Below are positions 1,047 through 43,044 of a DNA stretch of 47,953 bases, in pieces (positions within the stretch are counted from its first letter, which is position 1; each line of letters begins with the position of its first letter). The notes beneath the pieces were generated by a model that saw only the letters and a program-made list of their open reading frames with translations, had not been told where the DNA came from and did no database searches. The DNA is taken from IMG/VR virus record IMGVR_UViG_2554235123_000011; one strand, written 5' to 3'. The translations under genes were made by a program, and so were the position numbers. This DNA comes from a virus. Its lineage: Duplodnaviria > Heunggongvirae > Uroviricota > Caudoviricetes.

Positions 1047-1222
1047 TTACTCCCTGACAGGGTTCGTAGGCCACTCAATATCAGGTGCAGTTGATGTATC
1101 AACACGGTTCAGCAACACCCGATACTTTTTCCAGGCTTCCAGCAATGAGGTTTCTTCCTCCGTTGCAATTTCCAGATCTGCAGCATCCTGAAGCGGCGCA
1201 ATATGCTCACTGGCTACCTGCA
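1047..1222. repeat. Direct repeat copy 2 of the tfa 3' end
   Basis: See copy 1 at 1..175. Confidence 0.6.
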
Positions 1223-1631
1223 TCAGGTTGTTTTTTGTTTCTTCCGCCTCCCGGATCCGGAACAGTTTTTCTGCTTCCGTATCCTTCACCCAGGCTGTGC
1301 CGTTCCACTTCTGAAACTCCCCTTCCGGCGATAACCAGGTAACATTTTCCGGTAACGGACCGAGTTCAGAAATAAATAACTCGTCCCCTGACGCTACGTC
1401 ATAAACCGTTTTCCCCCGATGGTCTTCAACGAGATGCCACGATGCCTCATCACTGTTGAAAACAGCCACAAAGCCAGCAGGAATATCTGGTGGTGCAATA
1501 TCGGTACTGTTTGCTGGCAGACCTGTATGAGGCGGAATATATGCGTCACCTTCACCAATAAATTCATTAGTTCCGGCCAGCAGATTATAAATTTTTATGG
1601 TCCGTGCTTGTTCACTCATTCTGAATGCCAT
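1047..1631 (-). CDS. tfa: Tail fibre assembly protein Tfa (194 aa)
   Basis: Immediately downstream of stf with overlapping stop/start; conserved Tfa C-terminal domain; lambda-like position. Confidence 0.85.
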
Positions 1632-4669: not shown

Positions 4670-4702
4670 ATAAAAAAAGCCCGCAGCAGTGACGCCACGG
4701 GC
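4670..4702 (-). terminator. Intrinsic terminator-like hairpin plus T-run downstream of lom, just upstream of the stf start
   Basis: Minus-strand stem AGCCCG/CGGGCT followed by TTTTTTT. Confidence 0.4.
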
Positions 4703-4808: not shown

Positions 4809-5408
4809 TCAGAAACGGTATCCGATACCAACAATAAATGCATCCGTTCGCCAGTCGCCACTACCGGAACCTTCATAAGCAAGGTCAATGGTTACGGATT
4901 CGGTCGGGTTAAACTGCACGCCAGCCCCCCACGCCAGAGACGTGTTGCTGTGGCGACCGTCATCACTTCCGGTCAGCACATCGTGCGTTTTCCCCTTGTT
5001 GTCAGTTACGCGGAGATAATCCCCGGAGAAAGTCGACACACGGCTGTAAGCCACACCCACCATCGCATACGCGCTGAACCATTCATTCACGCGTACAGAC
5101 GGCCCCGCCATCACGCTGAACCAGCGGTTACGCACGGAATCTTCATGCCAGCGGGTATCGCTGTAGTGCGTTTTTTGCTCATCCTCAGCATTGGCATAAC
5201 TGAAGGACGTAATCAGCCCCAGCGCGTCCGTAAACTCATAACGGTATTTCACGTTAATCCCGTTCAGATTATCGCTGCCGGGAGCGTTCGTACGGGCATG
5301 AAGATACCCCGCGCTCAGTGTGGGCTGATGTTCAGACGCCCATGCAGGCGCACCGGATACGGACAGACAGATGGCTGCGGACAAAATGGCTGCACAAACT
5401 TTACGCAT
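4809..5408 (-). CDS. lom: Outer membrane protein Lom (Ail/Lom family, 199 aa, signal peptide)
   Basis: Signal peptide MRKVCAAILSAAICLSVSGAPAWA; C-terminal YEGSGSGDWRTDAFIVGIGYRF as in lambda Lom; located between J and stf. Confidence 0.9.
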   Translation of the reverse strand: MRKVCAAILSAAICLSVSGAPAWASEHQPTLSAGYLHARTNAPGSDNLNGINVKYRYEFTDALGLITSFSYANAEDEQKTHYSDTRWHEDSVRNRWFSVMAGPSVRVNEWFSAYAMVGVAYSRVSTFSGDYLRVTDNKGKTHDVLTGSDDGRHSNTSLAWGAGVQFNPTESVTIDLAYEGSGSGDWRTDAFIVGIGYRF

Positions 5409-5475: not shown

Positions 5476-8400
5476 TCAGCTAATCGTGATGCCTGCAGTG
5501 GCTTTCTTCATCACAACAACCAGCAAATCGCTGATACTTGCTGTGGGATACCAGCCATTTACCCACCATGCTGATACAGAAAACTCCAGCGTCATGTGGC
5601 CGCGACCAGCAGGCATATCAATAACACCACTGTAAATCAGCGTATTATCCAGCGCGGTACGGTTATAAATTTCAGCACCGTTTTTCCGTACTATCAGGCG
5701 GCATGACGAATAAGTATCGCTGTTCTCCCGCTCATGTCTGGCACCGCTGAAAGCCACCGCCGGAATAACAATCTGCCGGTTAAACGGCTGATCGTCATAA
5801 ACCCTGACGGTAATGGTTCCTGATGGCCAACGCTCCGGTGCACGGGAGTCACGGGGGAAAGCCTTACCCACTGTTTTAACGAGATCGCCTTCAATCTGGT
5901 TTGCAGACAGTTTCCCTCTGATGACACAGTTCTCGTTAATGGTGACATTATTGAGCGTGCCGGTATTCGCCGTGATGGCTCCACTGATATCCGCATTGCG
6001 GGCTGTCAGCCTGCCATCCGGCGTCAGGGAAAACGTAGGAGGATTGCCGGATGACGTGATGCTCACCGCAAACAGTCGCTTCAGGAACACGTCGTTCATG
6101 AACAGCTGATTCCCCTGCGCCACAAACAGCGGCGTGGTGTTGCCATTCTCCGGGGTAATCATCGCGATACGGTCCGCCTGCAGCAGAATACTGCTCAGCG
6201 TCTGACCATCAACATCCTCAATCCCCGCACCAATCCCGGCCACATAGGGAATACCGTTTTTTGTTTTCTGCACCTTCAGCATATACATGGCATTCAGCTC
6301 ATTGCGCGTGTCTGACTGAACCCGCTGGATTTGCTGTATGGTCACGGCCTGGTCACCCAGCTTTTTATCCGTGGTCGAGGTAATTTCACTCCCTTTTTTA
6401 TCCACGTACTGGCGGACCTGTGCTATCTGTCGGGCGTTTTCTGACTGCCCCTGGCTGACAGTCTGTGAGATTTCACTGCTCACCCGGTCCACTTTCTGGC
6501 TCACCTGCGCGATGGCCAGTGTCTGGTCCTCATTCTTTTTCGCAACCAGCTGCGTGAGGCTGTTTTCCGCCTTCCCGATTTTCCGGGTCACTTCTGCGAT
6601 ATCCGTGTCCATCCGCTGACGGATGTCTTCTTCCAGTTGCGTGACCTCCGTACGCAGCGCTGAAGCATCAATGCGCTCTTTCAGTGCCTGGCCCAGAAGC
6701 GTCTCATCTATCAGCCCCCGGAAAATTTCCAGATACCCTTCACCATCATTGCTGGGCTGCCCGCTGGCTTCCACAAAAGCAGATTTTCCCACCAGGTTGA
6801 CGCTTCGCACGTAAAACCAGAAATCCGTCCCCGGCTTAATCCGGCTCCCCTGGACAGTCCACTGACTGCCGGTCCCCAGATAACGGGCAGATTTTTCCAC
6901 CTGTGCCGTGTTCGTGATGCGTTTTTCTGAGAACCAGAATTCAAACTGTACCGTCGGGTCATACACCGCAAGACGCGGGACCGCCGTTATCTGAAAATAC
7001 CCCGGCGTCAGCTCAATCCGCGACGGTGCTGCCGGTGCGGCAATCCGGAAGGTGGTGGTCGCAGGTTCGCCCTGCTGGCCGTAGCTGTTAATGGCCCGCA
7101 CCGTCAGGGTGTATTCCCCCAGTGGCAGGCCGCTGAAACGGTGCTCCGTGTCTGCGGTGATGGCGGTGGTCACCAGTCTGGCATCCGTTCCCTTACCACT
7201 GGTCAGGCGCAGACTGAAGCGCACGCCCTTCACCACCCGCGGCGTGTCCCATTTAGCCTGCGCCAGATACTGGCCGTCAGCTGCGCTCACCTCCACCGTC
7301 AGGTGCTGCACTGCCGGTGGGATAACGCTGTTCAGGGTGCCTGACTGCGGCTCAAAGCGGGCCCCGTTATCCACGATGGCTTCTTTTTCAGGTACGTGCT
7401 GCACCGCCGTGATGGCAAAGGTGCCGTCCGTGTTTTCCCGGATGGAGACACAGCGGAACAGGCGACGACGCAGTGACGGCAGGGAGAGTCCCCACACACC
7501 GTATGTCTCCACACCATCCGGCAGGGTGCTGACCTGTATCCGGTCAGGCGCGGGGTGTGCGGTGATGGCCACGCTCGCCGGCTTACCGCTGCCGTTAATC
7601 AGATTAACAGTGGCCGTGCCGGTCTCCGGCAGTGTCACCTCCCGGTCCAGCGTCAGGGTACGGCTGGCGGCATCGATGGACAGGACACGTCCGCCGGTCA
7701 TGGTCCCGGCATAGTCGTTATCACAGATTTCAATGATGTCACCGGGTGTGTGACGCAGCCCCTGTGACCCGAGCGTGAAATCCACCGTCTGCGTTTCCAG
7801 CAGTTCGGTCTTTATCACCCACAGCCCGGCACGGTGGGCCTGACCGCGGCTGGTACAGCCGAACGCGTCCATCTTCAGCAGGTTGCGTCCGTAGCGCAGT
7901 ATGGCTTCCGGGTCTTCCACCAGTTCCGTGGAGGTCTGCCAGCCGTTCTGCGGGTCGGTGTAATTCACCTCCACTGCCGTGTGCCGGTCCTTCAGGGCAC
8001 TGAAGCTGTAGCGGAAACCCACGCCGTTATCATCCACCACCACATCGCTGTTGGTGTACGGCCACACCACATCCGACGGACGGTCCTGAACGAACGTCAG
8101 CGTCTGGCCGTTCCATACCGGCATACAGCGCATCGCAGAGCAGAAATCACTGAGAACGTCCCACGCCTTACGCTGTTGTGCCAGGTACGCATTAAAGGTC
8201 ATCCGCGGCTCGGTCCCCCCGAAACCATCCGGGACCGTCTGGTCGCAGTACTGCCCGATGGCATACAGCGCCCACTTGTCCACATCCGCCGCCCCCAGAC
8301 GTTTTCCCATGCCGTAGCGCGGGTGAGTCAGCATGTCCCACAGGCACCAGGCCGGGTTGTTGCTGTATGCCGGTTTCAGACTGCCGTCCCAGATACCACT

Positions 8401-9168
8401 GTACGTGCGTTTTTCCGGGTCATAGTTTGACGGCACCTGGATGATGCGACCGCGGATATGGTAGTTCACCGTCATCTGCTGGCCGCCGAACTGCTCCGCA
8501 TCCACCTGCAGCCCCACAATGGCCGTGTTCGGGTAGCACTGTTTCACATCGATGATTTCGGTGTATGACGACCACAGCGTCTTATTCTGCAGCTGGTCCG
8601 TGGTGCTGTCCGCCGTCTCCCTGACCATCCGGATGTTAAAGGGCCGGGGAGGCAGATTATCCAGAATCACCGAGGCCAGGAACTGCGAGGTGGTCTTGCC
8701 GTTAATGGTGACATCCTTTTCCGTCACCCAGCGGCCATTACGCTGTAACTGAATCAGAATCCGGACAGAGGAAGGATTACGGTCGCCCTTTGACGTGGTC
8801 TGCACCAGTGACTGCACCCCGAAGGTAACCCGCAGGCGGTCAATGTTCGCGGACGTAATGGTGCGCGTCACCGGTTTTGCCTTCGTCACTTCCACGCCCA
8901 GTCCGGTTTCAGCACCGGAGGACTCAAAGCCTTCCGGTGGTGTCTGCTCCTGCTCCCCGGCGCGCCAGACCGCCGTCACACCGTGTATCACGGGATTACC
9001 GTCCGTGTCCGTCAGCGGGGTTTTGTTCACCAGGATACTCTGCAGTCCCTTCACCGGACCTTCTATCGGTCCCTCACCAATCGCATCAATCACGCTCATC
9101 ATCTGCGTGGATTTGAGATTATCCTTCGCCTCACGAGGCGTGTGTGCCTTACCGCCACCTTTTCCCAT
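5476..9168 (-). CDS. J: Host specificity / central tail fibre protein J (1230 aa)
   Basis: Size, position after I, and N-terminal similarity to lambda gpJ (MGKGGGK...); contains a long heptad-like coiled-coil segment. Confidence 0.95.
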
Positions 9169-9269
9169 ACAGCCTTCCCCTGAATAAATTAACCGCCACT
9201 TGCCATTCCGTACAGAAGTCGGATATCCTTCGCCCGAAAAGCATGAAACACATTTCTGCCATGCTAAAG

Positions 9270-9307
9270 AGAAACCCCGGTATCAGCAGATACCGGGGTT
9301 TTCTTTC
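9270..9307. terminator. Strong bidirectional intrinsic terminator-like hairpin in the I-J spacer
   Basis: 10-bp GC-rich stem CCCCGGTATC/GATACCGGGG (9275..9284 and 9289..9298), 4-nt loop, T-rich tracts on both strands. Confidence 0.5.
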
Positions 9308-9373
9308 ATGCCCACCGATAATCCTGTTGGTTAAAACCGGTAATGGCATAAAAATTCTGAATATCTTCACATT

Positions 9374-9401
9374 TTCACAAACTGACTGTGGCGCGTATAA
9401 T
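9374..9401 (+). promoter_or_regulatory. Sigma70-like promoter on the plus strand (antisense to the tail operon)
   Basis: TTCACA, 16-bp spacer, TATAAT (9396..9401). Confidence 0.35.
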
Positions 9402-9407
9402 TTCTCT

Positions 9408-9505
9408 GCGTTAATTTTTTTGTCGTGATATAAGAATAATTCCTTACACTTAATCTTCGTAACTCTCCCGCAGTTCCTGTCCGCGATCACTGCGGGATTT
9501 TTTTA
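9408..9505 (+). ncRNA. Candidate small RNA (~100 nt) transcribed antisense to the tail operon in the I-J spacer
   Basis: Starts ~7 nt after the TATAAT; ends at hairpin CCCGCAGT...ACTGCGGG (9467..9496) followed by ATTTTTTTATT; no convincing ORF. Confidence 0.35.
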
Positions 9506-9511
9506 TTCTTT

Positions 9512-10192
9512 TTACCCCTGCCGCCCGATAACCACGACCTTTCCGCCCCCGCCTTCATCACGGGTGCTGATGTCCTGGGATATACGGCGGGAGCCAACCA
9601 GCATTTCCCCGTAAGGCACCGGCATCGGGTTCCCCTGGGCAATCATGTTATCCAGCGAGGAAAAGTACGTGTTCTGTCTGCCGTTATCCGTTGCGCGGTA
9701 ATCCGGTGTTTTTGCCTTCGGGGCCAGCATCTGGGCCACACCGCCCAGTATCATGCTGGCACCCAGTGAAAACAGCATTGTGGTGGCAGAAAAACCGCCG
9801 GCACTCAGGGCTGTACCCCATAACGCCATCGAGGCACCGGCCGTGAAGAAAGAGCCCACGATGGCTGCCGCCCCCAGCACAATCTGCAGTCCACCCTTTC
9901 CGGCCCCGGCCAGTCGCGGCACAATGTGGATGACCGTTCCCTCACCCAGCTGTTCGTGAAGACGGGCGTACACCGCCTCCGGTGCCGTGTCATCACCGGC
10001 AATACGTATCTGGTACCAGCCTTCGTTCATCTGACGGCGAAAGCCCGGCATCTGCATCGACAGGGCGCGAATGGCTTCCGCTGCCGTGTTCACATACAGG
10101 CTGAGGCGGCGGCCAAATCGTTGTAAATCCCCGTGAAGGCAGATGCGTGCCAGTGGCGGTGACGCCAGACAGAATGCGTTCGTCGTTGCCAT
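9512..10192 (-). CDS. I: Tail assembly protein I (226 aa)
   Basis: ARICLHGDLQRFGRR..., Gly/Ala-rich hydrophobic middle, position and size as lambda gpI. Confidence 0.9.
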   Translation of the reverse strand: MATTNAFCLASPPLARICLHGDLQRFGRRLSLYVNTAAEAIRALSMQMPGFRRQMNEGWYQIRIAGDDTAPEAVYARLHEQLGEGTVIHIVPRLAGAGKGGLQIVLGAAAIVGSFFTAGASMALWGTALSAGGFSATTMLFSLGASMILGGVAQMLAPKAKTPDYRATDNGRQNTYFSSLDNMIAQGNPMPVPYGEMLVGSRRISQDISTRDEGGGGKVVVIGRQG

Positions 10193-10833
10193 TTTTCGGA
10201 ATACCTCTCCCGTTTACTCAGTTGTTCAGGCAGATGGTGAAGCAGCTCACCGTTACCGCAGTAAATGGCGGCATGGTTCGGTACCGAAGCACCAAAGCAG
10301 CACAGCAGAATATCGCCCGCCTGTGCAGAGGACAGGGGCACCCGGTAAAAGCCGGTGACCGCCATATTGTCCAGGTAAAGGTTCTGGCCGTTGCGCCACC
10401 AGTCATCCTCGCGATGAAAATCCGGCATTTCAGTCCCCGCCAGATGATAAGCATCCCGGAACAGCGTGTAACAGTCCGTCACCCCGTGCTCAAAGCGCCG
10501 TCCCGTCAGATGTGGCACACAGCGGAATTTGTGAATGTCACCCCGGCAGACCAGCCACCAGGGCAGTGCGCTTTTTATCTGCAGCCGCCGGTCAGCCTCG
10601 CTCAGCCAGGGCAGCCCACCGGGATGACTGTGGACCAGTGCCACAATCTCCCCCTGCATCTCTGCCCGCAGCCAGTCTTCCGGTGCGATACGAAAATACG
10701 CCTCCGGCTCCGCGGAAATATTCACACAAGGGATATACCACTCCCCCTCCGGCGTGCTTATCACGAAGCCGCACGACTCCGCAGGCGCACACCGCCGGGC
10801 ATGTGCCAGAATCGCTGATTCAGTCTGTGTCAT
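10090..10833 (-). CDS. K: Tail assembly protein K (JAB/MPN plus NlpC/P60-like, ~247 aa); start taken at MTQTESAIL...
   Basis: HSHPGG JAB motif; lambda gpK-like; the longer ORF to 11094 would overlap L and is rejected. Confidence 0.85.
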   Translation of the reverse strand: MTQTESAILAHARRCAPAESCGFVISTPEGEWYIPCVNISAEPEAYFRIAPEDWLRAEMQGEIVALVHSHPGGLPWLSEADRRLQIKSALPWWLVCRGDIHKFRCVPHLTGRRFEHGVTDCYTLFRDAYHLAGTEMPDFHREDDWWRNGQNLYLDNMAVTGFYRVPLSSAQAGDILLCCFGASVPNHAAIYCGNGELLHHLPEQLSKRERYSEKWQRRTHSVWRHRHWHASAFTGIYNDLAAASACM

Positions 10834-10843
10834 AAACCGGGAT

Positions 10844-11542
10844 TTACTGCGAAAGTTTATTAATGGAAAGGAAACCGCCAAAATTGCCGACATTCCTGCG
10901 CAGTTCACACCCGCGCATGCACTTGCTGCATCTGTCCTTACGGATATCCGTGGTGGGTTTATCGAACTCATCCGCCACAGCCCCGCCCGTGTAACCACAC
11001 TCATCAGAGCGGTAGGTCCACATACAGGTGTTCGCCAGCATGATACGACCGGGAAACAGCGCCCCGTCCGTCTCGGTCGGTGTGGCCAGCACAAACGAGG
11101 CCGTCATGGCTGTCAGCGCTGACATCTGCTCCACCACCCACCGGTCCGTCAGCTCCTGCTCCGGGTCGGCCTCCGGATTGCCCGCAACGAAATTCACCGC
11201 ATCCAGAAAACGGGCATACACCCGGCGGCGGACCACCGTGGCCCCCACCAGACTCTGCAGGTCTTCCGCCATCCCGGTGACCAGACCGAACAGATTGGAC
11301 ACCGTCAGCGACGGTCTGGCACTGCTGCCCTTCCCGCTCATCTCAAAGCCACTCCCCTCAATCGGGTACGCCTGATATTCACGCCCCTGCCAGGTCACCG
11401 GCTCCCCTTTTTCATTCAGCTCATTGCAGAAAAAATACCGCTCACCGCCCTGCACCGTCAGGTCGATTTCCCAGAGTACCACCCGCGGTGACTGCTCTGA
11501 CTTAACCGACTCGTTCAGACTTTCTTCGTGAATATCCTGCAT
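10844..11542 (-). CDS. L: Minor tail protein L (232 aa)
   Basis: Same length as lambda gpL, conserved position; C-terminal Cys cluster. Confidence 0.9.
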   Translation of the reverse strand: MQDIHEESLNESVKSEQSPRVVLWEIDLTVQGGERYFFCNELNEKGEPVTWQGREYQAYPIEGSGFEMSGKGSSARPSLTVSNLFGLVTGMAEDLQSLVGATVVRRRVYARFLDAVNFVAGNPEADPEQELTDRWVVEQMSALTAMTASFVLATPTETDGALFPGRIMLANTCMWTYRSDECGYTGGAVADEFDKPTTDIRKDRCSKCMRGCELRRNVGNFGGFLSINKLSQ

Positions 11543-11871
11543 CAGTTCACCACCTGCTTAAACTCCGCGCTGAACTCAACGCGCAACATCCCGACCCGCG
11601 CAGACCACCCGGCACAGATCACCTTTATCTGCCGGTATGCATAGGGTGGCTTCCACAAAAATGCCTTCCAGCCACCGTGCTCTGCCAGGAACGCTTCCAG
11701 ATGCCGGGCCTCCTCCCGGGTCACGGAAAGCGTCACCCTGTATGTTTTCAGGTCAGCATTCAGCCCTGCCGCCATACGCTGTGAGTACCCGTCACCAAAA
11801 CGCACTTCACGCACCGATGGCTGCGAGTTCACCTCCATATCCGGCTTCACTTTCCAGCGAAATGTTTTCAT
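11542..11871 (-). CDS. M: Minor tail protein M (109 aa)
   Basis: Same length and position as lambda gpM. Confidence 0.9.
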   Translation of the reverse strand: MKTFRWKVKPDMEVNSQPSVREVRFGDGYSQRMAAGLNADLKTYRVTLSVTREEARHLEAFLAEHGGWKAFLWKPPYAYRQIKVICAGWSARVGMLRVEFSAEFKQVVN

Positions 11872-14429
11872 CGCCCGCTCCCCGATAACAGACCGCCATC
11901 ACGCAACTGCAGCCGGAGCTCATCCTGCGCACCTTTACGGGCCATCTCATACACCGCTTTCATCAGCTGCGGCCCGGCCTGTCCGTTGATACCGTCGTTC
12001 TGAATCACCACGTGATTGTTCTGATTAAAATTAATGCCTTCGGCCCGCCGCATCTGCGCCGGACTTCCGGCAGCACCCACATACCCCCCTTCCGCATAGC
12101 CCCGCATCAGGCGGTACAGGTTCCCGACACCAATCCGGCTGGTTGCCTCCTTCGTGAAGACAAACTCCCCGCGGTGGACAATCCCCGCTGGCTCATATTT
12201 GCCGCCGGTTCCCGTAAATCCTCCGGTCGCAAAATGGAATTTCGCCGCAGCTGCCTGAATGGCTGTACCGCCTGACGCGGATGCGCCACCACCAACAGCC
12301 CCGCCAATAGCGCTGCCGATACTCCCGACAATCCCCACCATTGCCTGCTTCAGCAGAATTTCTGTCATCATGGACAGCACGGAGCGGGTGAAGCTGCGCC
12401 AGTTCTGCTCACTGCCGGTCAGCATCGCCGCCATATTCTGTGCAATACCATCAAAGGTCTGCGTGGCAGCACTTTTTACCTGCGACATACTGTCCGTGGC
12501 ACTCTCTTCCCACTCACTCCAGCCGGACCTGAGGCCTGCCATCCAGTTCCCGCGAAGCAGGTCTTCAGCCGCCCAGGTCTTTTTCTGCTCTGACATGACG
12601 TTATTCAGCGCCAGCGGATTATCGCCATACTGTTCCTTCAGGCGCTGTTCCGTGGCTTCCCGTTCTGCCTGCCGGTCAGTCAGCCCCCGGCTTTTCGCAT
12701 CAATGGCGGCCCGTTTTGCCCGTTGCTGCTGTGCGAATTTATCCGCCTGCTGCGCCAGCGCGTTCAGGCGCTCCTGATACGTAACCTTGTCGCCAAGTGC
12801 AGCCAGCTGGCGTTTGTACTCCAGCGTCTCATCTTTATGCGCCAGCAGGGATTTCTCCTGTGCAGACAGCTGGCGACGTTGCGCCGCCTCCTCCAGTACC
12901 GCGAACTGACTCTCCGCCTTCCACAAATCCCGGCGCTGCTGGCTGATTTTCTCATTCGCTCCGGCATGCTTCTCCAGCGTCCGGAGTTCTGCCTGAAGCG
13001 TCAGCAGGGCAGCATGAGCACTGTCTTCCTGACGATCGCCCGCAGACACCTTCACGCCGGACTGTTTCGGCTTTTTCAGCGTCGCTTCATAATCCTTTTT
13101 CGCCGCCGCCATCAGCGTGTTGTAATCCGCCTGCAGGATTTTCCCGTCTTTCAGTGCCTTGTTCAGTTCTTCCTGACGGGCGGTATATTTCTCCAGCGGC
13201 GTCTGCAGCCGTTCGTAAGCCTTCTGCGCCTCTTCGGTATATTTCAGCCGTGACGCTTCGGTATCGCTCTGCTGCTGCGCATTTTTGTCCTGTTGACTCT
13301 GCTGCTCAGCCTTCTTTCGGGCGGCTTCAAGCGCAAGACGGGCCTTTTCACGATCATCCCAGTAACGCGCCCGCGCTTCATCGTTAACAAAATAATCATC
13401 CTTGCGCAGATTCCAGATGTCGTCTGCTTTCTTAAACGCAGCCTCTGCCTTAATCAGCATCTCCTGCGCGGTATCAGGACGACCAATATCCAGCACCGCA
13501 TCCCACATGGATTTGAATGCCCGCGCTGTCCTGTCTGCCCAGGTCTCCAGCGTGCCCATGTTCTCTTTCAGGCGGCGGGTCTGGTCATCAAACCCTTTCG
13601 TTGCGGCCTCGTTCGCCGCCTGCAATGCCCCGGTTTCATCGCCGGAACGCTGCAACTGAGCAACATACGCAATCTGCTCCGCCGTCACGTTATGGAACTG
13701 CTTCGCCATCGCAATCAGCCCCGACGTCGGGTCAGTGGTCAGTTTTCCGAAAGCCTCTGCAACCTTGTCCACCTCCACACCGGATGCAGAAGCAAAACGC
13801 GCGACACTCTGGTTGATGGCATCAAACTGTTCACCACCACGCACACCGGCATTCACCATGGCTGCCAGTGACTCACTCGCCTGGTTAAACGTCAGCCCTG
13901 CGGCCTGTCCGGCTCTGGAGAGCGTCAGCATGCGATCGGCAGTCAGTCCGGACTGATTACCGGAAAGAACCAGGGTTTTATTAAACGCTGAAAGCGTGGA
14001 ATCTCCCTGGTACCAGGCGTACACCAGCGCACCTGTCGCCACCGCCAGCGAGGTGACCCCGACCATCGGCAGGGTGATCGCACCGGCAAGCCCCCTGAAC
14101 ATGGGGATCATCCCGCCGAAGGAGTCCTTCACCTGACCGCCCTGTTGCAGCAGGATCAGCCAGGGATTCTGACCACCGGCAAGCTGCGTGGCGATATCCG
14201 TAAACTGTGCGGGCAGGGTTCGCATGGCCGCTTTATACTGCCCGACGGAAATCCCTGCTTTTTGTGCAGCCAGCGCCTGGTGGCTCAGCCCCTGCTCAAC
14301 GACAGTTGCGGTTTTTCTGGCGTCAGTATCCAGACCTGAAAAATGACGCCTTACCCGGCTCATCTGCTCATCGAAACGGACCGCATCCAGACTCAGGTCA
14401 ATAACAAGATCACCAACCGGCTGGGACAT
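11868..14429 (-). CDS. H: Tail tape measure protein H (853 aa)
   Basis: Same length as lambda gpH and near-identical over long stretches as remembered (e.g. ...KDGKILQADYNTLMAAAKKDYEATLKKPKQ...). Confidence 0.95.
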   Translation of the reverse strand: MSQPVGDLVIDLSLDAVRFDEQMSRVRRHFSGLDTDARKTATVVEQGLSHQALAAQKAGISVGQYKAAMRTLPAQFTDIATQLAGGQNPWLILLQQGGQVKDSFGGMIPMFRGLAGAITLPMVGVTSLAVATGALVYAWYQGDSTLSAFNKTLVLSGNQSGLTADRMLTLSRAGQAAGLTFNQASESLAAMVNAGVRGGEQFDAINQSVARFASASGVEVDKVAEAFGKLTTDPTSGLIAMAKQFHNVTAEQIAYVAQLQRSGDETGALQAANEAATKGFDDQTRRLKENMGTLETWADRTARAFKSMWDAVLDIGRPDTAQEMLIKAEAAFKKADDIWNLRKDDYFVNDEARARYWDDREKARLALEAARKKAEQQSQQDKNAQQQSDTEASRLKYTEEAQKAYERLQTPLEKYTARQEELNKALKDGKILQADYNTLMAAAKKDYEATLKKPKQSGVKVSAGDRQEDSAHAALLTLQAELRTLEKHAGANEKISQQRRDLWKAESQFAVLEEAAQRRQLSAQEKSLLAHKDETLEYKRQLAALGDKVTYQERLNALAQQADKFAQQQRAKRAAIDAKSRGLTDRQAEREATEQRLKEQYGDNPLALNNVMSEQKKTWAAEDLLRGNWMAGLRSGWSEWEESATDSMSQVKSAATQTFDGIAQNMAAMLTGSEQNWRSFTRSVLSMMTEILLKQAMVGIVGSIGSAIGGAVGGGASASGGTAIQAAAAKFHFATGGFTGTGGKYEPAGIVHRGEFVFTKEATSRIGVGNLYRLMRGYAEGGYVGAAGSPAQMRRAEGINFNQNNHVVIQNDGINGQAGPQLMKAVYEMARKGAQDELRLQLRDGGLLSGSGR

Positions 14430-14823
14430 ATCTCACACCTCCCGGAATCCCCGCTGAAGCCATCATTAATGCGGCATCATCCACCATGACATCCGCCACA
14501 TCCGCAGACGATAAAATATCGCCCCCTCCGTCCCCACCGAACCGGACGCCTCCGGCAAGTCCTGCCGCTTTCTGCATCAGCATTTTGTCCTCATCCGGCC
14601 TCTCCACCTGCTCTTCCTCATGCCGGGGGACAAGCAGACTGAAATCAGAGGGATGCATATCCGGATCGCAAAAAAACAGGCTGAGTACAGCGTACGTCAG
14701 CCCGGAAAAATGCATATCCAGCTGGGTATCCTGAAAATAATGCGTGCGGTAAAAACGGTGCCAGTCGGCATATTCGGTGGATGTCATCCCGGCAAGCATG
14801 GCGCGCCAGTCGGGTCTCCCCAT
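14410..14823 (-). CDS. T: T portion of the G-T tail assembly chaperone (expressed by -1 frameshift from G)
   Basis: ORF in the -1 frame overlapping the G 3' end; slippery motif G GGA AAG present near the end of G (about 14870..14880). Confidence 0.7.
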   Translation of the reverse strand: MGRPDWRAMLAGMTSTEYADWHRFYRTHYFQDTQLDMHFSGLTYAVLSLFFCDPDMHPSDFSLLVPRHEEEQVERPDEDKMLMQKAAGLAGGVRFGGDGGGDILSSADVADVMVDDAALMMASAGIPGGVRYVPAGW

Positions 14824-30189: not shown

Positions 30190-30544
30190 GGAGTTTACTC
30201 ACATCTGACAAAATCAATATAAACAGCCCCTCCGGAGAGGGGCTGGAGAGTGGCGCTATGTGCCATTGCATGGTGCCGGGTGCCTCCCGGTGAATTCAGT
30301 ACCAGCACCTGAATCCGCGATTATCCCATATACCTACTCGCTGATTGCCCCTCCGCACAGGGGGATTCACCATGCCAGTTTCTTTTAACAAACTCCCCGC
30401 AAACCAGACAACAGTCAACCGCCTGAATTGTGAAGTATTTAAAAATTTCTCCCGCTAACTGATACCCGGCTAACAGTCTGGCGTTTTCTTTTTCAGCAAC
30501 GGGAAAGCAACAACCACCACACCCACCAGCCGCCCATTTACCAC

Positions 30545-33892: not shown

Positions 33893-34048
33893 TTACTCCT
33901 CAGGTTCGTAAGCTGTGAAGACAGCGACCTCCGTCTGGCCGGTTCGGATTCGTACCTCGCAGAGGTCTTTCCTCGTTACCAGTGCCGTCACTATGACGGT
34001 TAAACAGATGACGATCAGGGCGATTAACATCGCCTTTTGCTGCTTCAT
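33893..34048 (-). CDS. hokD: Hok/Gef-family type I toxin (51 aa)
   Basis: MKQQKAMLIALIVICLTVIVTALVTRKDLCEVRIRTGQTEVAVFTAYEPEE, as remembered for HokD/RelF. Confidence 0.85.
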   Translation of the reverse strand: MKQQKAMLIALIVICLTVIVTALVTRKDLCEVRIRTGQTEVAVFTAYEPEE

Positions 34049-34309
34049 AGCCTGCTTCTCCTTGACCTTTCGGCCCGTAAGAGGCTAACCTACATGTGTC
34101 TAGCATGAAATATGGCCTCAGATTAATGTTAAGCGTCTTGCAGGACGCGTAATGTTAACTGGGGCTTTTCTCTATCTGCCTTTTGGTGTTCATGCCTGAG
34201 ACAGATAGCCTCAAGCACCCGCAGTTATTCTACTTAACTAAGATTTCCCCGCAAACCGTTTTTGTCCGGCACAGTAAATATCCAACTAAACCAATGGCGT
34301 TCGCTGTAT

Positions 34310-42217: not shown

Positions 42218-42516
42218 TTTATTCACAGGTGAGGTAGAGTGCGTGCGCCGGACACGGATAAGAATCCGGCACTGACAGTTTACTAAAAAGGATATATCCC
42301 TGAAAAGTCAGGGCATAACACGAAAGCGCCCGGCGAAGTTAGTCTCTCTGTATAGGTCGTCGTTAAATTTAATTCGATCGTGCGCTTCCGGTTGTGGCAA
42401 TCCGCGAAATGGCGCGGCGGTAAGTATGGCTGGGGTTTCCTCCATTGCTCCAGAAAATGCACCGGGTTGTCAGGTTGACCATACGCTTAAGTGACAGCCC
42501 CGCCACAATACCCATG

Positions 42517-42569
42517 TGTAGTCTTTGGTGGCATCAGTTCTACTCCGTGACTGCTCTGCCACCCTTTTT
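42517..42569 (+). ncRNA. dicF: DicF small RNA homologue
   Basis: tttggtggcatcagttctactccgtgactgctctgccacccttttt: conserved core TACTCCGTGACTGCTCTGCC and terminal hairpin GGTGGC/GCCACC plus T5. Confidence 0.8.
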
Positions 42570-42852
42570 AAAGTGAATTTTGTGATGCGGTGAATGCGGC
42601 TAAGCGCACGCGGAACAGTTAAAACCAAAAACAGTGTTATGGGTGGATTCTCTGTATCCGGCGTTAATTGTTAACTGGTTAACGTCACCTGGAGGCACCA
42701 GGCACCGCATCAACAAAGTTCACTTCGGTGATGAAAGGTAAGAGAAAATGTTGAATGTAGCTATTGAAAACCAGAACGGGTGGAATTATAGTGCACCTGC
42801 ACCTCATAAAACGGGTGCCGGGCGTGGAAACCCGGAATTCAATCAAGCGCAT

Positions 42853-42877
42853 AACCGCGCTCAGGCGGTTTTTTTAT
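42853..42877 (+). terminator. Intrinsic terminator-like hairpin between DicF and the Rha-like gene
   Basis: AACCGC-gctcag-GCGGTT followed by TTTTTTT. Confidence 0.45.
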
Positions 42878-43044
42878 GCGTCAAGCACAGCCACATTCAG
42901 ATTATGGTGGGGCGTGCAGGGCAGCTGCAAGGCTGGCCGGATTCTTGGTTGACCGGTATTTCCACCCCTGTACGCCTCACCACCCTTATGGTCGTGGAAA
43001 ACCTTGGTGGTGAGTTATTAATACTCAACCAAGAGGCTGCCATT

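Follow-up and report, generated by a model that had tools for sequence, protein, structure and literature searches.

The spacer between tail genes I and J in a lambdoid prophage of 47,953 nucleotides (IMG/VR record IMGVR_UViG_2554235123_000011, referred to as a whole as the window) carries a plus-strand unit at about 9356..9504. We consider it likely, with good confidence, that this unit is a PasB-family small RNA (sRNA) gene, the family called EcOnc22, EcOnc23 and EcOnc24 in enterohaemorrhagic Escherichia coli (EHEC), and that it forms a small antisense 'moron' at the I-J junction. The original prediction, made from the letters alone, had proposed a stand-alone prophage sRNA of about 100 nucleotides (nt) antisense to the tail operon, and the unit is indeed homologous in sequence, synteny and orientation to PasB of enteropathogenic E. 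coli (EPEC). The family itself is already known from two experimental studies and one survey and is missing from Rfam and from RefSeq annotation. The new elements are limited to an allele class that is divergent and common and appears not to have been catalogued, to a seed position derived by computation, and to a different assignment for a second hairpin in the same spacer. For the rest, the case mainly confirms that a genuine sRNA gene can be recognised by a reader without tools. The features on which the argument depends are as follows.

9169..9511: I-J spacer, 343 bp, between J and I, which are both on the minus strand
9356..9371, plus strand: palindrome TCTGA-N6-TCACA, candidate regulator-binding site, upstream of and overlapping the -35 region
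9374..9401, plus strand: sigma-70 promoter of the sRNA, with -35 TTCACA (9374..9379), a 16-bp spacer and -10 TATAAT (9396..9401)
9407..9504, plus strand: likely PasB-family sRNA gene, window allele ('class A'); maximal transcript 9407/9408..9504, 83-nt PasB equivalent 9421..9504
9440..9459, plus strand: seed-equivalent single-stranded region UUCCUUACACUUAAUCUUCG, aligned to nt 21-40 of E2348/69 PasB and unpaired in the predicted fold
9467..9504, plus strand: rho-independent terminator and Hfq-binding 3' end, a stem followed by U7 at 9498..9504

The probable sRNA unit and its relatives in EPEC and EHEC

PasB (pathogenicity-associated sRNA B) comes from prophage PP6 of EPEC O127:H6 strain E2348/69 (Pearl Mizrahi et al. 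2021, PMC8550237), where five prophage sRNAs were identified by RIL-seq, in which interacting RNAs are ligated and then sequenced. It is an 83-nt RNA encoded on the minus strand of NC_011601 (1466343..1466261; table S6 of PMC8550237), gave a Northern band and was found in 37 RIL-seq interactions. PasB is Hfq-dependent, with log2 fold changes of -6.8 and -2.4 in an hfq deletion, and its level was higher in overnight static lysogeny broth (LB) than in exponential Dulbecco's modified Eagle medium (DMEM) (PMC8550237). In the RefSeq record of E2348/69 it lies between the 'tail assembly protein' (I) and 'gpJ' and is antisense to both. The unit in the window is thus found at the same I-J locus in the same antisense orientation and with the same terminator core and U7, and IS009 occurs nearby in both, as a preprint reports for PasB. 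The two loci differ in the length of the spacer (343 bp in the window versus 240 bp in E2348/69), in its left module and hairpin, and by several indels in the sRNA body.

Conservation was observed to be unevenly distributed along the unit. The promoter block (9349..9406) is 93% identical to that of E2348/69 PasB whereas the 5' body and the seed-equivalent region are each only about 65% identical; a pairwise alignment with PasB gave 65 identical columns out of 89 (about 73%), the longest exact word shared with the E2348/69 RNA is 25 nt, and the published PasB Northern probe (AATCCCGCAGTGATCGCGGAGCT) matches the window at 20 of its 23 bases. A covariance model was built from 10 alleles, none of them of class A, and its only significant match in the window was the plus-strand interval 9407..9504 (69.3 bits, E about 1e-13; the next match had E = 1.5), so that the covariance-model search proposed with the original prediction recovers the sRNA region from other alleles. 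No Rfam 15 family covers the unit at gathering score, and the matches up to E = 10 reflect generic terminator hairpins only.

The near-consensus sigma-70 promoter that had been noticed on the plus strand holds up well, as it matches the consensus at 11 of 12 positions. Three promoter-like sites of at least 9/12 were found in 8900..9800, compared with 0.7 expected from shuffles. The CA-rich stretch cacattttcacaaac, noted earlier without being claimed as a seed, turned out to be the -35 region of this promoter; it lies outside the transcript and is no seed. The -10 hexamer predicts a transcript start at about 9408; for the homologous RNA, the 5' end given in the literature corresponds to about 9421. 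At the other end, the predicted hairpin and T-run closing a unit of about 100 nt were found as described, with CCCGCAGT (9467..9474) pairing with ACTGCGGG (9489..9496) ahead of the T7. The core stem CCCGCAG/CTGCGGG and the U-tract were invariant in all collected alleles, an invariance that for the stem follows in part from how the loci were collected because the search pattern required the terminator 3' arm. As is usual for Hfq-dependent sRNAs, the predicted fold is open over its 5' two-thirds and closes with the terminal hairpin and U7. This conservation of promoter and terminator suggests that the window allele is expressed as well.

Upstream of the promoter, the half-sites of the palindrome were found to be invariant in 34/34 alleles, even where the -35 hexamer has diverged (Sakai Sp15 type and the locus L047), and the 6-nt spacer between them varies among alleles. 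The palindrome resembles a CRP site at 9/10 core positions when judged by eye, and its distance from the -10 deviates by about 3 bp from that in a class II CRP promoter. Neither CRP nor LexA is put forward as the factor that binds it, since the spacing or the key bases fit too poorly for such a claim. The higher level of PasB in static LB than in DMEM would be compatible with catabolite control and also with many other regulators.

The EHEC counterparts were reported as homologous plus-strand peaks in Hfq-CRAC, in which RNA cross-linked to Hfq is analysed as cDNA, where EcOnc22, EcOnc23 and EcOnc24 come from the Sakai prophages Sp15 (Stx1), Sp14 and Sp11 (Tree et al. 2014, PMC4104026 table S2). 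EcOnc22 gave a Northern band of about 85 nt and was destabilised in an hfq deletion (PMC4104026), and a 2021 review lists the targets of all three as unknown (PMC7873438). We observed that all three coordinates fall within I-J spacers of NC_002695.2 on the strand opposite the tail genes. The PasB-like unit in these spacers shares with the window the palindrome, the core UCC.U..AAUCUUC and the CCCGCAG/CTGCGGG terminator with U7, and its -10 is similar. The Sakai alleles belong to another class: 6 nt are deleted from the 5' body, the seed is ACUCCAUAACGUUAAUCUUC, the loop of the terminator has changed and the -35 is degenerate. Mapping the EcOnc peaks onto NC_002695.2 requires an offset correction. 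AgvB1 is listed at 1941783..1941835 in the 2014 study and was found by the Rfam AgvB model at 1941920..1941981, so that at 1.94 Mb the shift between the 2014 numbering and the current record is about +137 to +146; in total length NC_002695.2 exceeds the older reference by 128 bp. Once a shift of about +128 to +146 is applied, the EcOnc22 peak sits on the PasB-like body and not upstream of its promoter. EcOnc22, EcOnc23 and EcOnc24 are very likely relatives of PasB, and the comparison of I-J junctions across lambdoid prophages that had been suggested shows the same arrangement in E2348/69 and in Sakai Sp11, Sp14 and Sp15.

Allele classes and the proposed seed region

The whole spacer was matched in 1662 of the 5426 complete E. 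coli genomes as well as in 52 phage records, among them Stx1a, Stx2a and Stx2c phages and PPompW prophages, and with this recurrence the unit is more than a product of chance. Strain ATCC 25922 ('FDA strain Seattle 1946') carries a spacer 100% identical to that of the window, and an identical one is present in SK1144. A pattern scan of IMG/VR yielded more than 120 prophage contigs which, together with the reference loci, represent 34 distinct sequences. Hardly any variation was seen among these sequences in the promoter block, the palindrome and the terminator, and the body varies, with at least four classes distinguished in the 5' body and central region by substitutions and by indels of 1, 3, 4, 5 and 6 nt. 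The window allele was found in 800 of the 5426 complete genomes, the E2348/69 type in 956, and the window allele was the commonest in the IMG/VR sample (30 loci). The part of the spacer that precedes the unit also exists in more than one form:

9169..9348, unstranded: left module of the spacer in its 'long' form, between the J start and the PasB promoter block; counted as a 186-nt unit it extends to about 9354

This module is long (181-186 nt) in about 78 of 120 IMG/VR loci and short (83-93 nt) in the remainder. Since the body classes are combined with either left module, the parts have been shuffled by recombination.

A recent survey by Zhu, Shabalina and Storz (2026, bioRxiv 10.64898/2026.05.13.724894) searched for PasB in Escherichia and Shigella by BLAST with a word size of 28, and reported only variants with 'a few nucleotide differences' and none in E. 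albertii. Because the longest word shared with the window allele is shorter than 28 nt, the published search would not seed on it, and the class was therefore probably missed and is probably uncatalogued. An allele of the window type was observed in E. albertii NBRC 107761 (NZ_BBMY01000220.1) on a 1.4-kb contig which is 98% identical to 8137..9536. A second contig outside E. coli, of 3.4 kb and labelled Streptomyces flavalbus (NZ_JBHTEB010000006.1), is 96.8% identical to 7226..10640, has a GC content of 58.6% and bears an allele that stands between the window type and the E2348/69 type; almost certainly the J-I-K region of an E. coli prophage has contaminated this assembly. These two were the only matches among species-representative genomes and no distant homologues were seen in that scan, which fits a unit restricted to Escherichia. 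About 15% of complete E. coli genomes thus carry the window class, as does E. albertii, and it appears to be common in extraintestinal isolates.

The region most likely to contact other RNAs was sought in the characterised allele. The RIL-seq chimeras of PasB involve ler, perB, bfpB, bfpI, ftsZ, galE, rplX, the napF 5' untranslated region (UTR), caiF, map, hflX, fabR, the tolC 5' UTR, the raiA 5' UTR and others (PMC8550237). Windows of 10 nt along PasB were scored against 8 well-supported partner fragments and their dinucleotide shuffles, and complementarity was found to be enriched only at PasB nt 19-33 (CUCCUUCACAUUGAUC), where z reached -5.2 and 0/40 shuffles attained the observed mean. At napF the predicted site is a 16-bp duplex of -25.4 kcal/mol which covers the Shine-Dalgarno sequence GGAAGG and the GUG start codon, and the sites in caiF, yijD and E2348C_RS14200 are at or near ribosome-binding sites. 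Full-length RNAduplex runs of the sRNA against the partner fragments were set aside in favour of the 10-nt windows because they returned long, loop-rich and uninformative duplexes, and random tail-gene fragments were discarded as a control because they are biased by base composition.

The aligned region of the window allele (UUCCUUACACUUAAUCUUCG) resembles an anti-Shine-Dalgarno sequence (UCCUUA). It keeps UCCUU and AAUCUUC and differs in between, leaving 9440..9459 only 65% identical to E2348/69 PasB, and it does not act as the same seed in this analysis: against the EPEC fragments it reached -7.3 to -14.3 kcal/mol, compared with -14.5 to -25.4 kcal/mol for the E2348/69 allele, with no enrichment over shuffles. 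This divergence indicates a different allele class and is no argument against membership of the PasB family. We infer from these predictions the position of the seed in both alleles, a repression of translation by occlusion of ribosome-binding sites, which the anti-Shine-Dalgarno-like seed supports without proving it, and targets that are allele-specific, those of the window allele probably differing from those of the EPEC allele.

A sequence of events can be proposed on this basis. In a lysogen, host RNA polymerase would start at TTCACA/TATAAT and stop at the hairpin and U7, giving an RNA of about 84-98 nt that is unstructured over its 5' two-thirds and has a 3' end of the Hfq type. If the characterised allele is taken as a guide, Hfq would stabilise this RNA and present the pyrimidine-rich seed at 9440..9459, which could then pair in trans with the ribosome-binding regions of host and prophage mRNAs and would most likely repress their translation. 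With promoter and terminator conserved and the seed differing from the EPEC allele at about one third of its positions, the set of targets would probably be a different one. Tentatively, and as a proposal that we hold with rather less than even confidence, PasB may be a modular 'seed cassette' in which a conserved, regulated promoter and a terminator/Hfq module surround a hypervariable seed, the parts being shuffled by lambdoid recombination; the window class would have its own regulon and would perhaps act on the tail operon in cis at induction. If alleles do have different regulons, carriage of a prophage would rewire host post-transcriptional control in a strain-dependent manner, and this rewiring would, if true, extend to extraintestinal pathogenic E. 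coli.

Weighing the alternatives

The RNA might instead act mainly in cis, pairing as an antisense of the late tail-operon transcript with I-J RNA during lytic growth and leading to RNase III processing, to altered stability or stoichiometry of the I and J messages, or to titration of the sRNA by late mRNA. We regard this as unlikely, even though neither the I-J position nor the antisense orientation changes in any allele or prophage examined and nothing in the 48-kb window apart from the perfect antisense match is outstandingly complementary to the seed (-36.6 kcal/mol, with the next at -19). That match is trivial for an antisense RNA, and no trans target stood out in the window; a site upstream of the start of the tape-measure gene (14431..14455, -19.2 kcal/mol) was indistinguishable from background. 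The transcript overlaps no coding sequence or ribosome-binding site on the opposite strand, since 7 nt separate its end from the I stop codon, its start is more than 230 nt distant from the J start codon, and the J ribosome-binding site is more than 250 nt away. Furthermore, the sRNA accumulates in lysogens, in which the late operon is silent, and many unlinked mRNAs are found with it in Hfq-dependent chimeras. For a cis-antisense RNA a hypervariable body would be neutral, and a conserved promoter and terminator around a changing seed would be left unexplained. A role in cis would, in any case, not exclude one in trans. Much less probable is an anti-sRNA or sponge of the AgvB/AsxR type, whose main partner would be a core-genome sRNA bound through mimicry of that sRNA's target. 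Prophage anti-sRNAs do occur in the same class of prophage (PMC4104026), and one RIL-seq chimera joins PasB to the region adjoining PasA, but the listed partners are almost all mRNAs (coding sequence or 5' UTR) and not core sRNAs. The class is defined by a conserved 3' domain of about 42 nt (RF02702 or RF02703), for which no match up to E = 10 was seen in 9100..9600, whereas the AgvB model does find Sakai AgvB1. The unit is also 83-98 nt long compared with 51-60 nt, and it lies in the tail operon. AgvB and AsxR are encoded downstream of Q at the PR' moron site (PMC4104026), which also corrects the earlier statement that anti-sRNA genes had been reported in the tail regions of EHEC prophages. 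An AgvB/AsxR identity was rejected on the location and the absent model match.

Least credible of all, to the point of being very improbable, is that the unit is a non-functional relic, a promoter and terminator left from moron insertion at a recombination hot spot, or a gene for a small protein. The I-J junction is a moron insertion site, and in Sakai Sp10 sodC stands beside a PasB-like body without its promoter, as a relic would have it; against this, promoter block, palindrome and terminator have stayed almost invariant across the 34 alleles with a variable body, and the sister alleles are abundant Hfq-bound RNAs. As for a protein, mechanical open reading frames (ORFs) of 113 amino acids (aa) on the minus strand and of 94 and 44 aa on the plus strand do cross the spacer. 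None of them matches a Pfam or PHROG family, and they are broken by the indels that separate the alleles, mostly not multiples of three (1, 4 and 5 nt, with some of 3 and 6). Together with the substitutions, these indels in the body exclude a coding function, in line with the earlier reading that the spacer has no credible ORF.

Several points weigh against the identification as a PasB-family sRNA with a trans-acting seed. RIL-seq chimeras show proximity on Hfq and are no proof of regulation. Expression, Hfq binding and partners are known from the sister alleles only (E2348/69 and Sakai). The 5' end of the published 83-nt RNA falls about 13 nt further downstream than the -10 predicts, so that the RNA may start elsewhere or be processed, and the terminator stem, being invariant, offers no covariation. 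The seed analysis consists of only 8 hand-picked high-count partners and thermodynamic prediction, and the placement of EcOnc22 depends on an inferred offset that was measured at the single locus AgvB1. In addition, MEME gave the authors of the PasB study no motif shared by its targets, and PasB is missing from their fig. S5 (PMC8550237); no PasB target has been validated in published work, and we found no functional study of PasB in the literature. A PasB-family sRNA gene remains the reading that we prefer.

The second hairpin and the I-J junction

The spacer contains a further structure between the PasB promoter and J, and the genes that surround the spacer are those of a lambda-like tail operon:

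9272..9306, unstranded: strong GC-rich hairpin, 10-bp stem 9275..9284 / 9289..9298, bordered by an A-tract and, at the opposite end, a T-tract
4809..5408, minus strand: lom homologue
5476..9168, minus strand: J, tip attachment / host specificity gene, with six GpJ-related Pfam domains (E = 1e-25 to 1e-41)
9512..10192, minus strand: I, tail assembly gene, matching Pfam Lambda_tail_I (E = 1.8e-16) and PHROG tail families
next after L, minus strand: K-like JAB/NlpC gene
10844..11542, minus strand: L
11542..11871, minus strand: M
11868..14429, minus strand: H

The J start at 9168 and the I stop codon at 9512..9514, the latter 7 nt past the sRNA U-tract, bear out the 343-bp non-coding I-J spacer, as do the Pfam matches of both genes. 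Directly downstream of the lom homologue, CTGCGGGCTTTTTT on the minus strand at 4673..4686 is similar to the PasB terminator in its 3' arm and U-tract. At this place the match of the covariance model was not significant (10.2 bits, E = 2.7), and the element is probably just the lom terminator. Elsewhere in the prophage, Rfam matches at gathering score were observed for IS009, STnc100, sok, DicF, isrK and C4 antisense RNA; the coordinates of these other matches are 1090..1288, 30215..30404 and 34046..34220 on the minus strand and 42513..42564, 42799..42875 and 42900..42987 on the plus strand. The prophage thus holds at least seven small-RNA loci. STnc100 is related to PasD (2026 preprint, bioRxiv 10.64898/2026.05.13.724894).

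The very stable 10-bp GC stem with T-tracts on both strands that had been described was confirmed at 9275..9298. It folds far better than shuffles on either strand (z = -6.7 on the plus strand and -5.5 on the minus strand) and looks like a terminator on both. This hairpin is outside the sRNA and corresponds in position to a hairpin in lambda. Contrary to the original prediction, I and J do not strictly abut there: a 60-bp gap separates them, with a hairpin of its own (AACCGCC-TGCG-GGCGGTT) followed by TTTGTCATTT. Relatives with short spacers (E2348/69, Sakai and others) have a different hairpin in the same relative place between the PasB promoter and J, with a T-run only on the tail-operon strand and one compensatory change of C-G to U-A. 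On the simplest reading, a terminator-like hairpin on the sense strand is an ancestral part of the I-J junction and would be read through by Q-modified polymerase, and the PasB unit would have been inserted between the I stop codon and this hairpin. One IMG/VR locus (L052) lacks 47 nt equivalent to about 9258..9304, which includes the whole GC hairpin, and the deletion is bounded by TTTCT direct repeats, so that the hairpin can drop out, or was acquired, in one piece. A second sRNA ending at 9275..9298 and made from a divergent minus-strand promoter was rejected, as no site reached 9/12 and the hexamers matched by eye at 3-4/6 positions each. On the plus strand, a weak promoter-like site (TTGCCA-18-TATCCT, 9/12, 9200..9229) was seen upstream of the hairpin at 9275..9298 and its TTTTCTTT tail, and 9200..9306 could in principle encode a second plus-strand RNA of about 70 nt, found only in the 'long' spacers.

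The junction has also received other cargo. In Sakai Sp10 the I-J spacer is 851 bp long and holds sodC (ECs_1989, Cu/Zn superoxide dismutase) antisense to the tail genes (L137:11470-12345; NC_002695.2 1963469..1964344), which identifies the junction as a moron hot spot. A class-A-like PasB body was observed downstream of the sodC terminator with the PasB promoter replaced. This copy may be silent or may be made by read-through from sodC, and no EcOnc peak is listed at this spacer (PMC4104026). The sodC moron and the unit in the window share the insertion site, the orientation opposite to the tail operon and the possession of their own promoter and terminator. They differ in what is carried, which is a non-coding RNA of about 0.15 kb in the window and a protein gene in Sp10. 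AgvB and AsxR are, like PasB, short Hfq-binding RNAs encoded by lambdoid prophages of pathogenic E. coli, and in all of them the 5' part varies and the 3' part is conserved; AgvB and AsxR sequester the core sRNAs GcvB and FnrS, whereas the RIL-seq partners of PasB are mRNAs.

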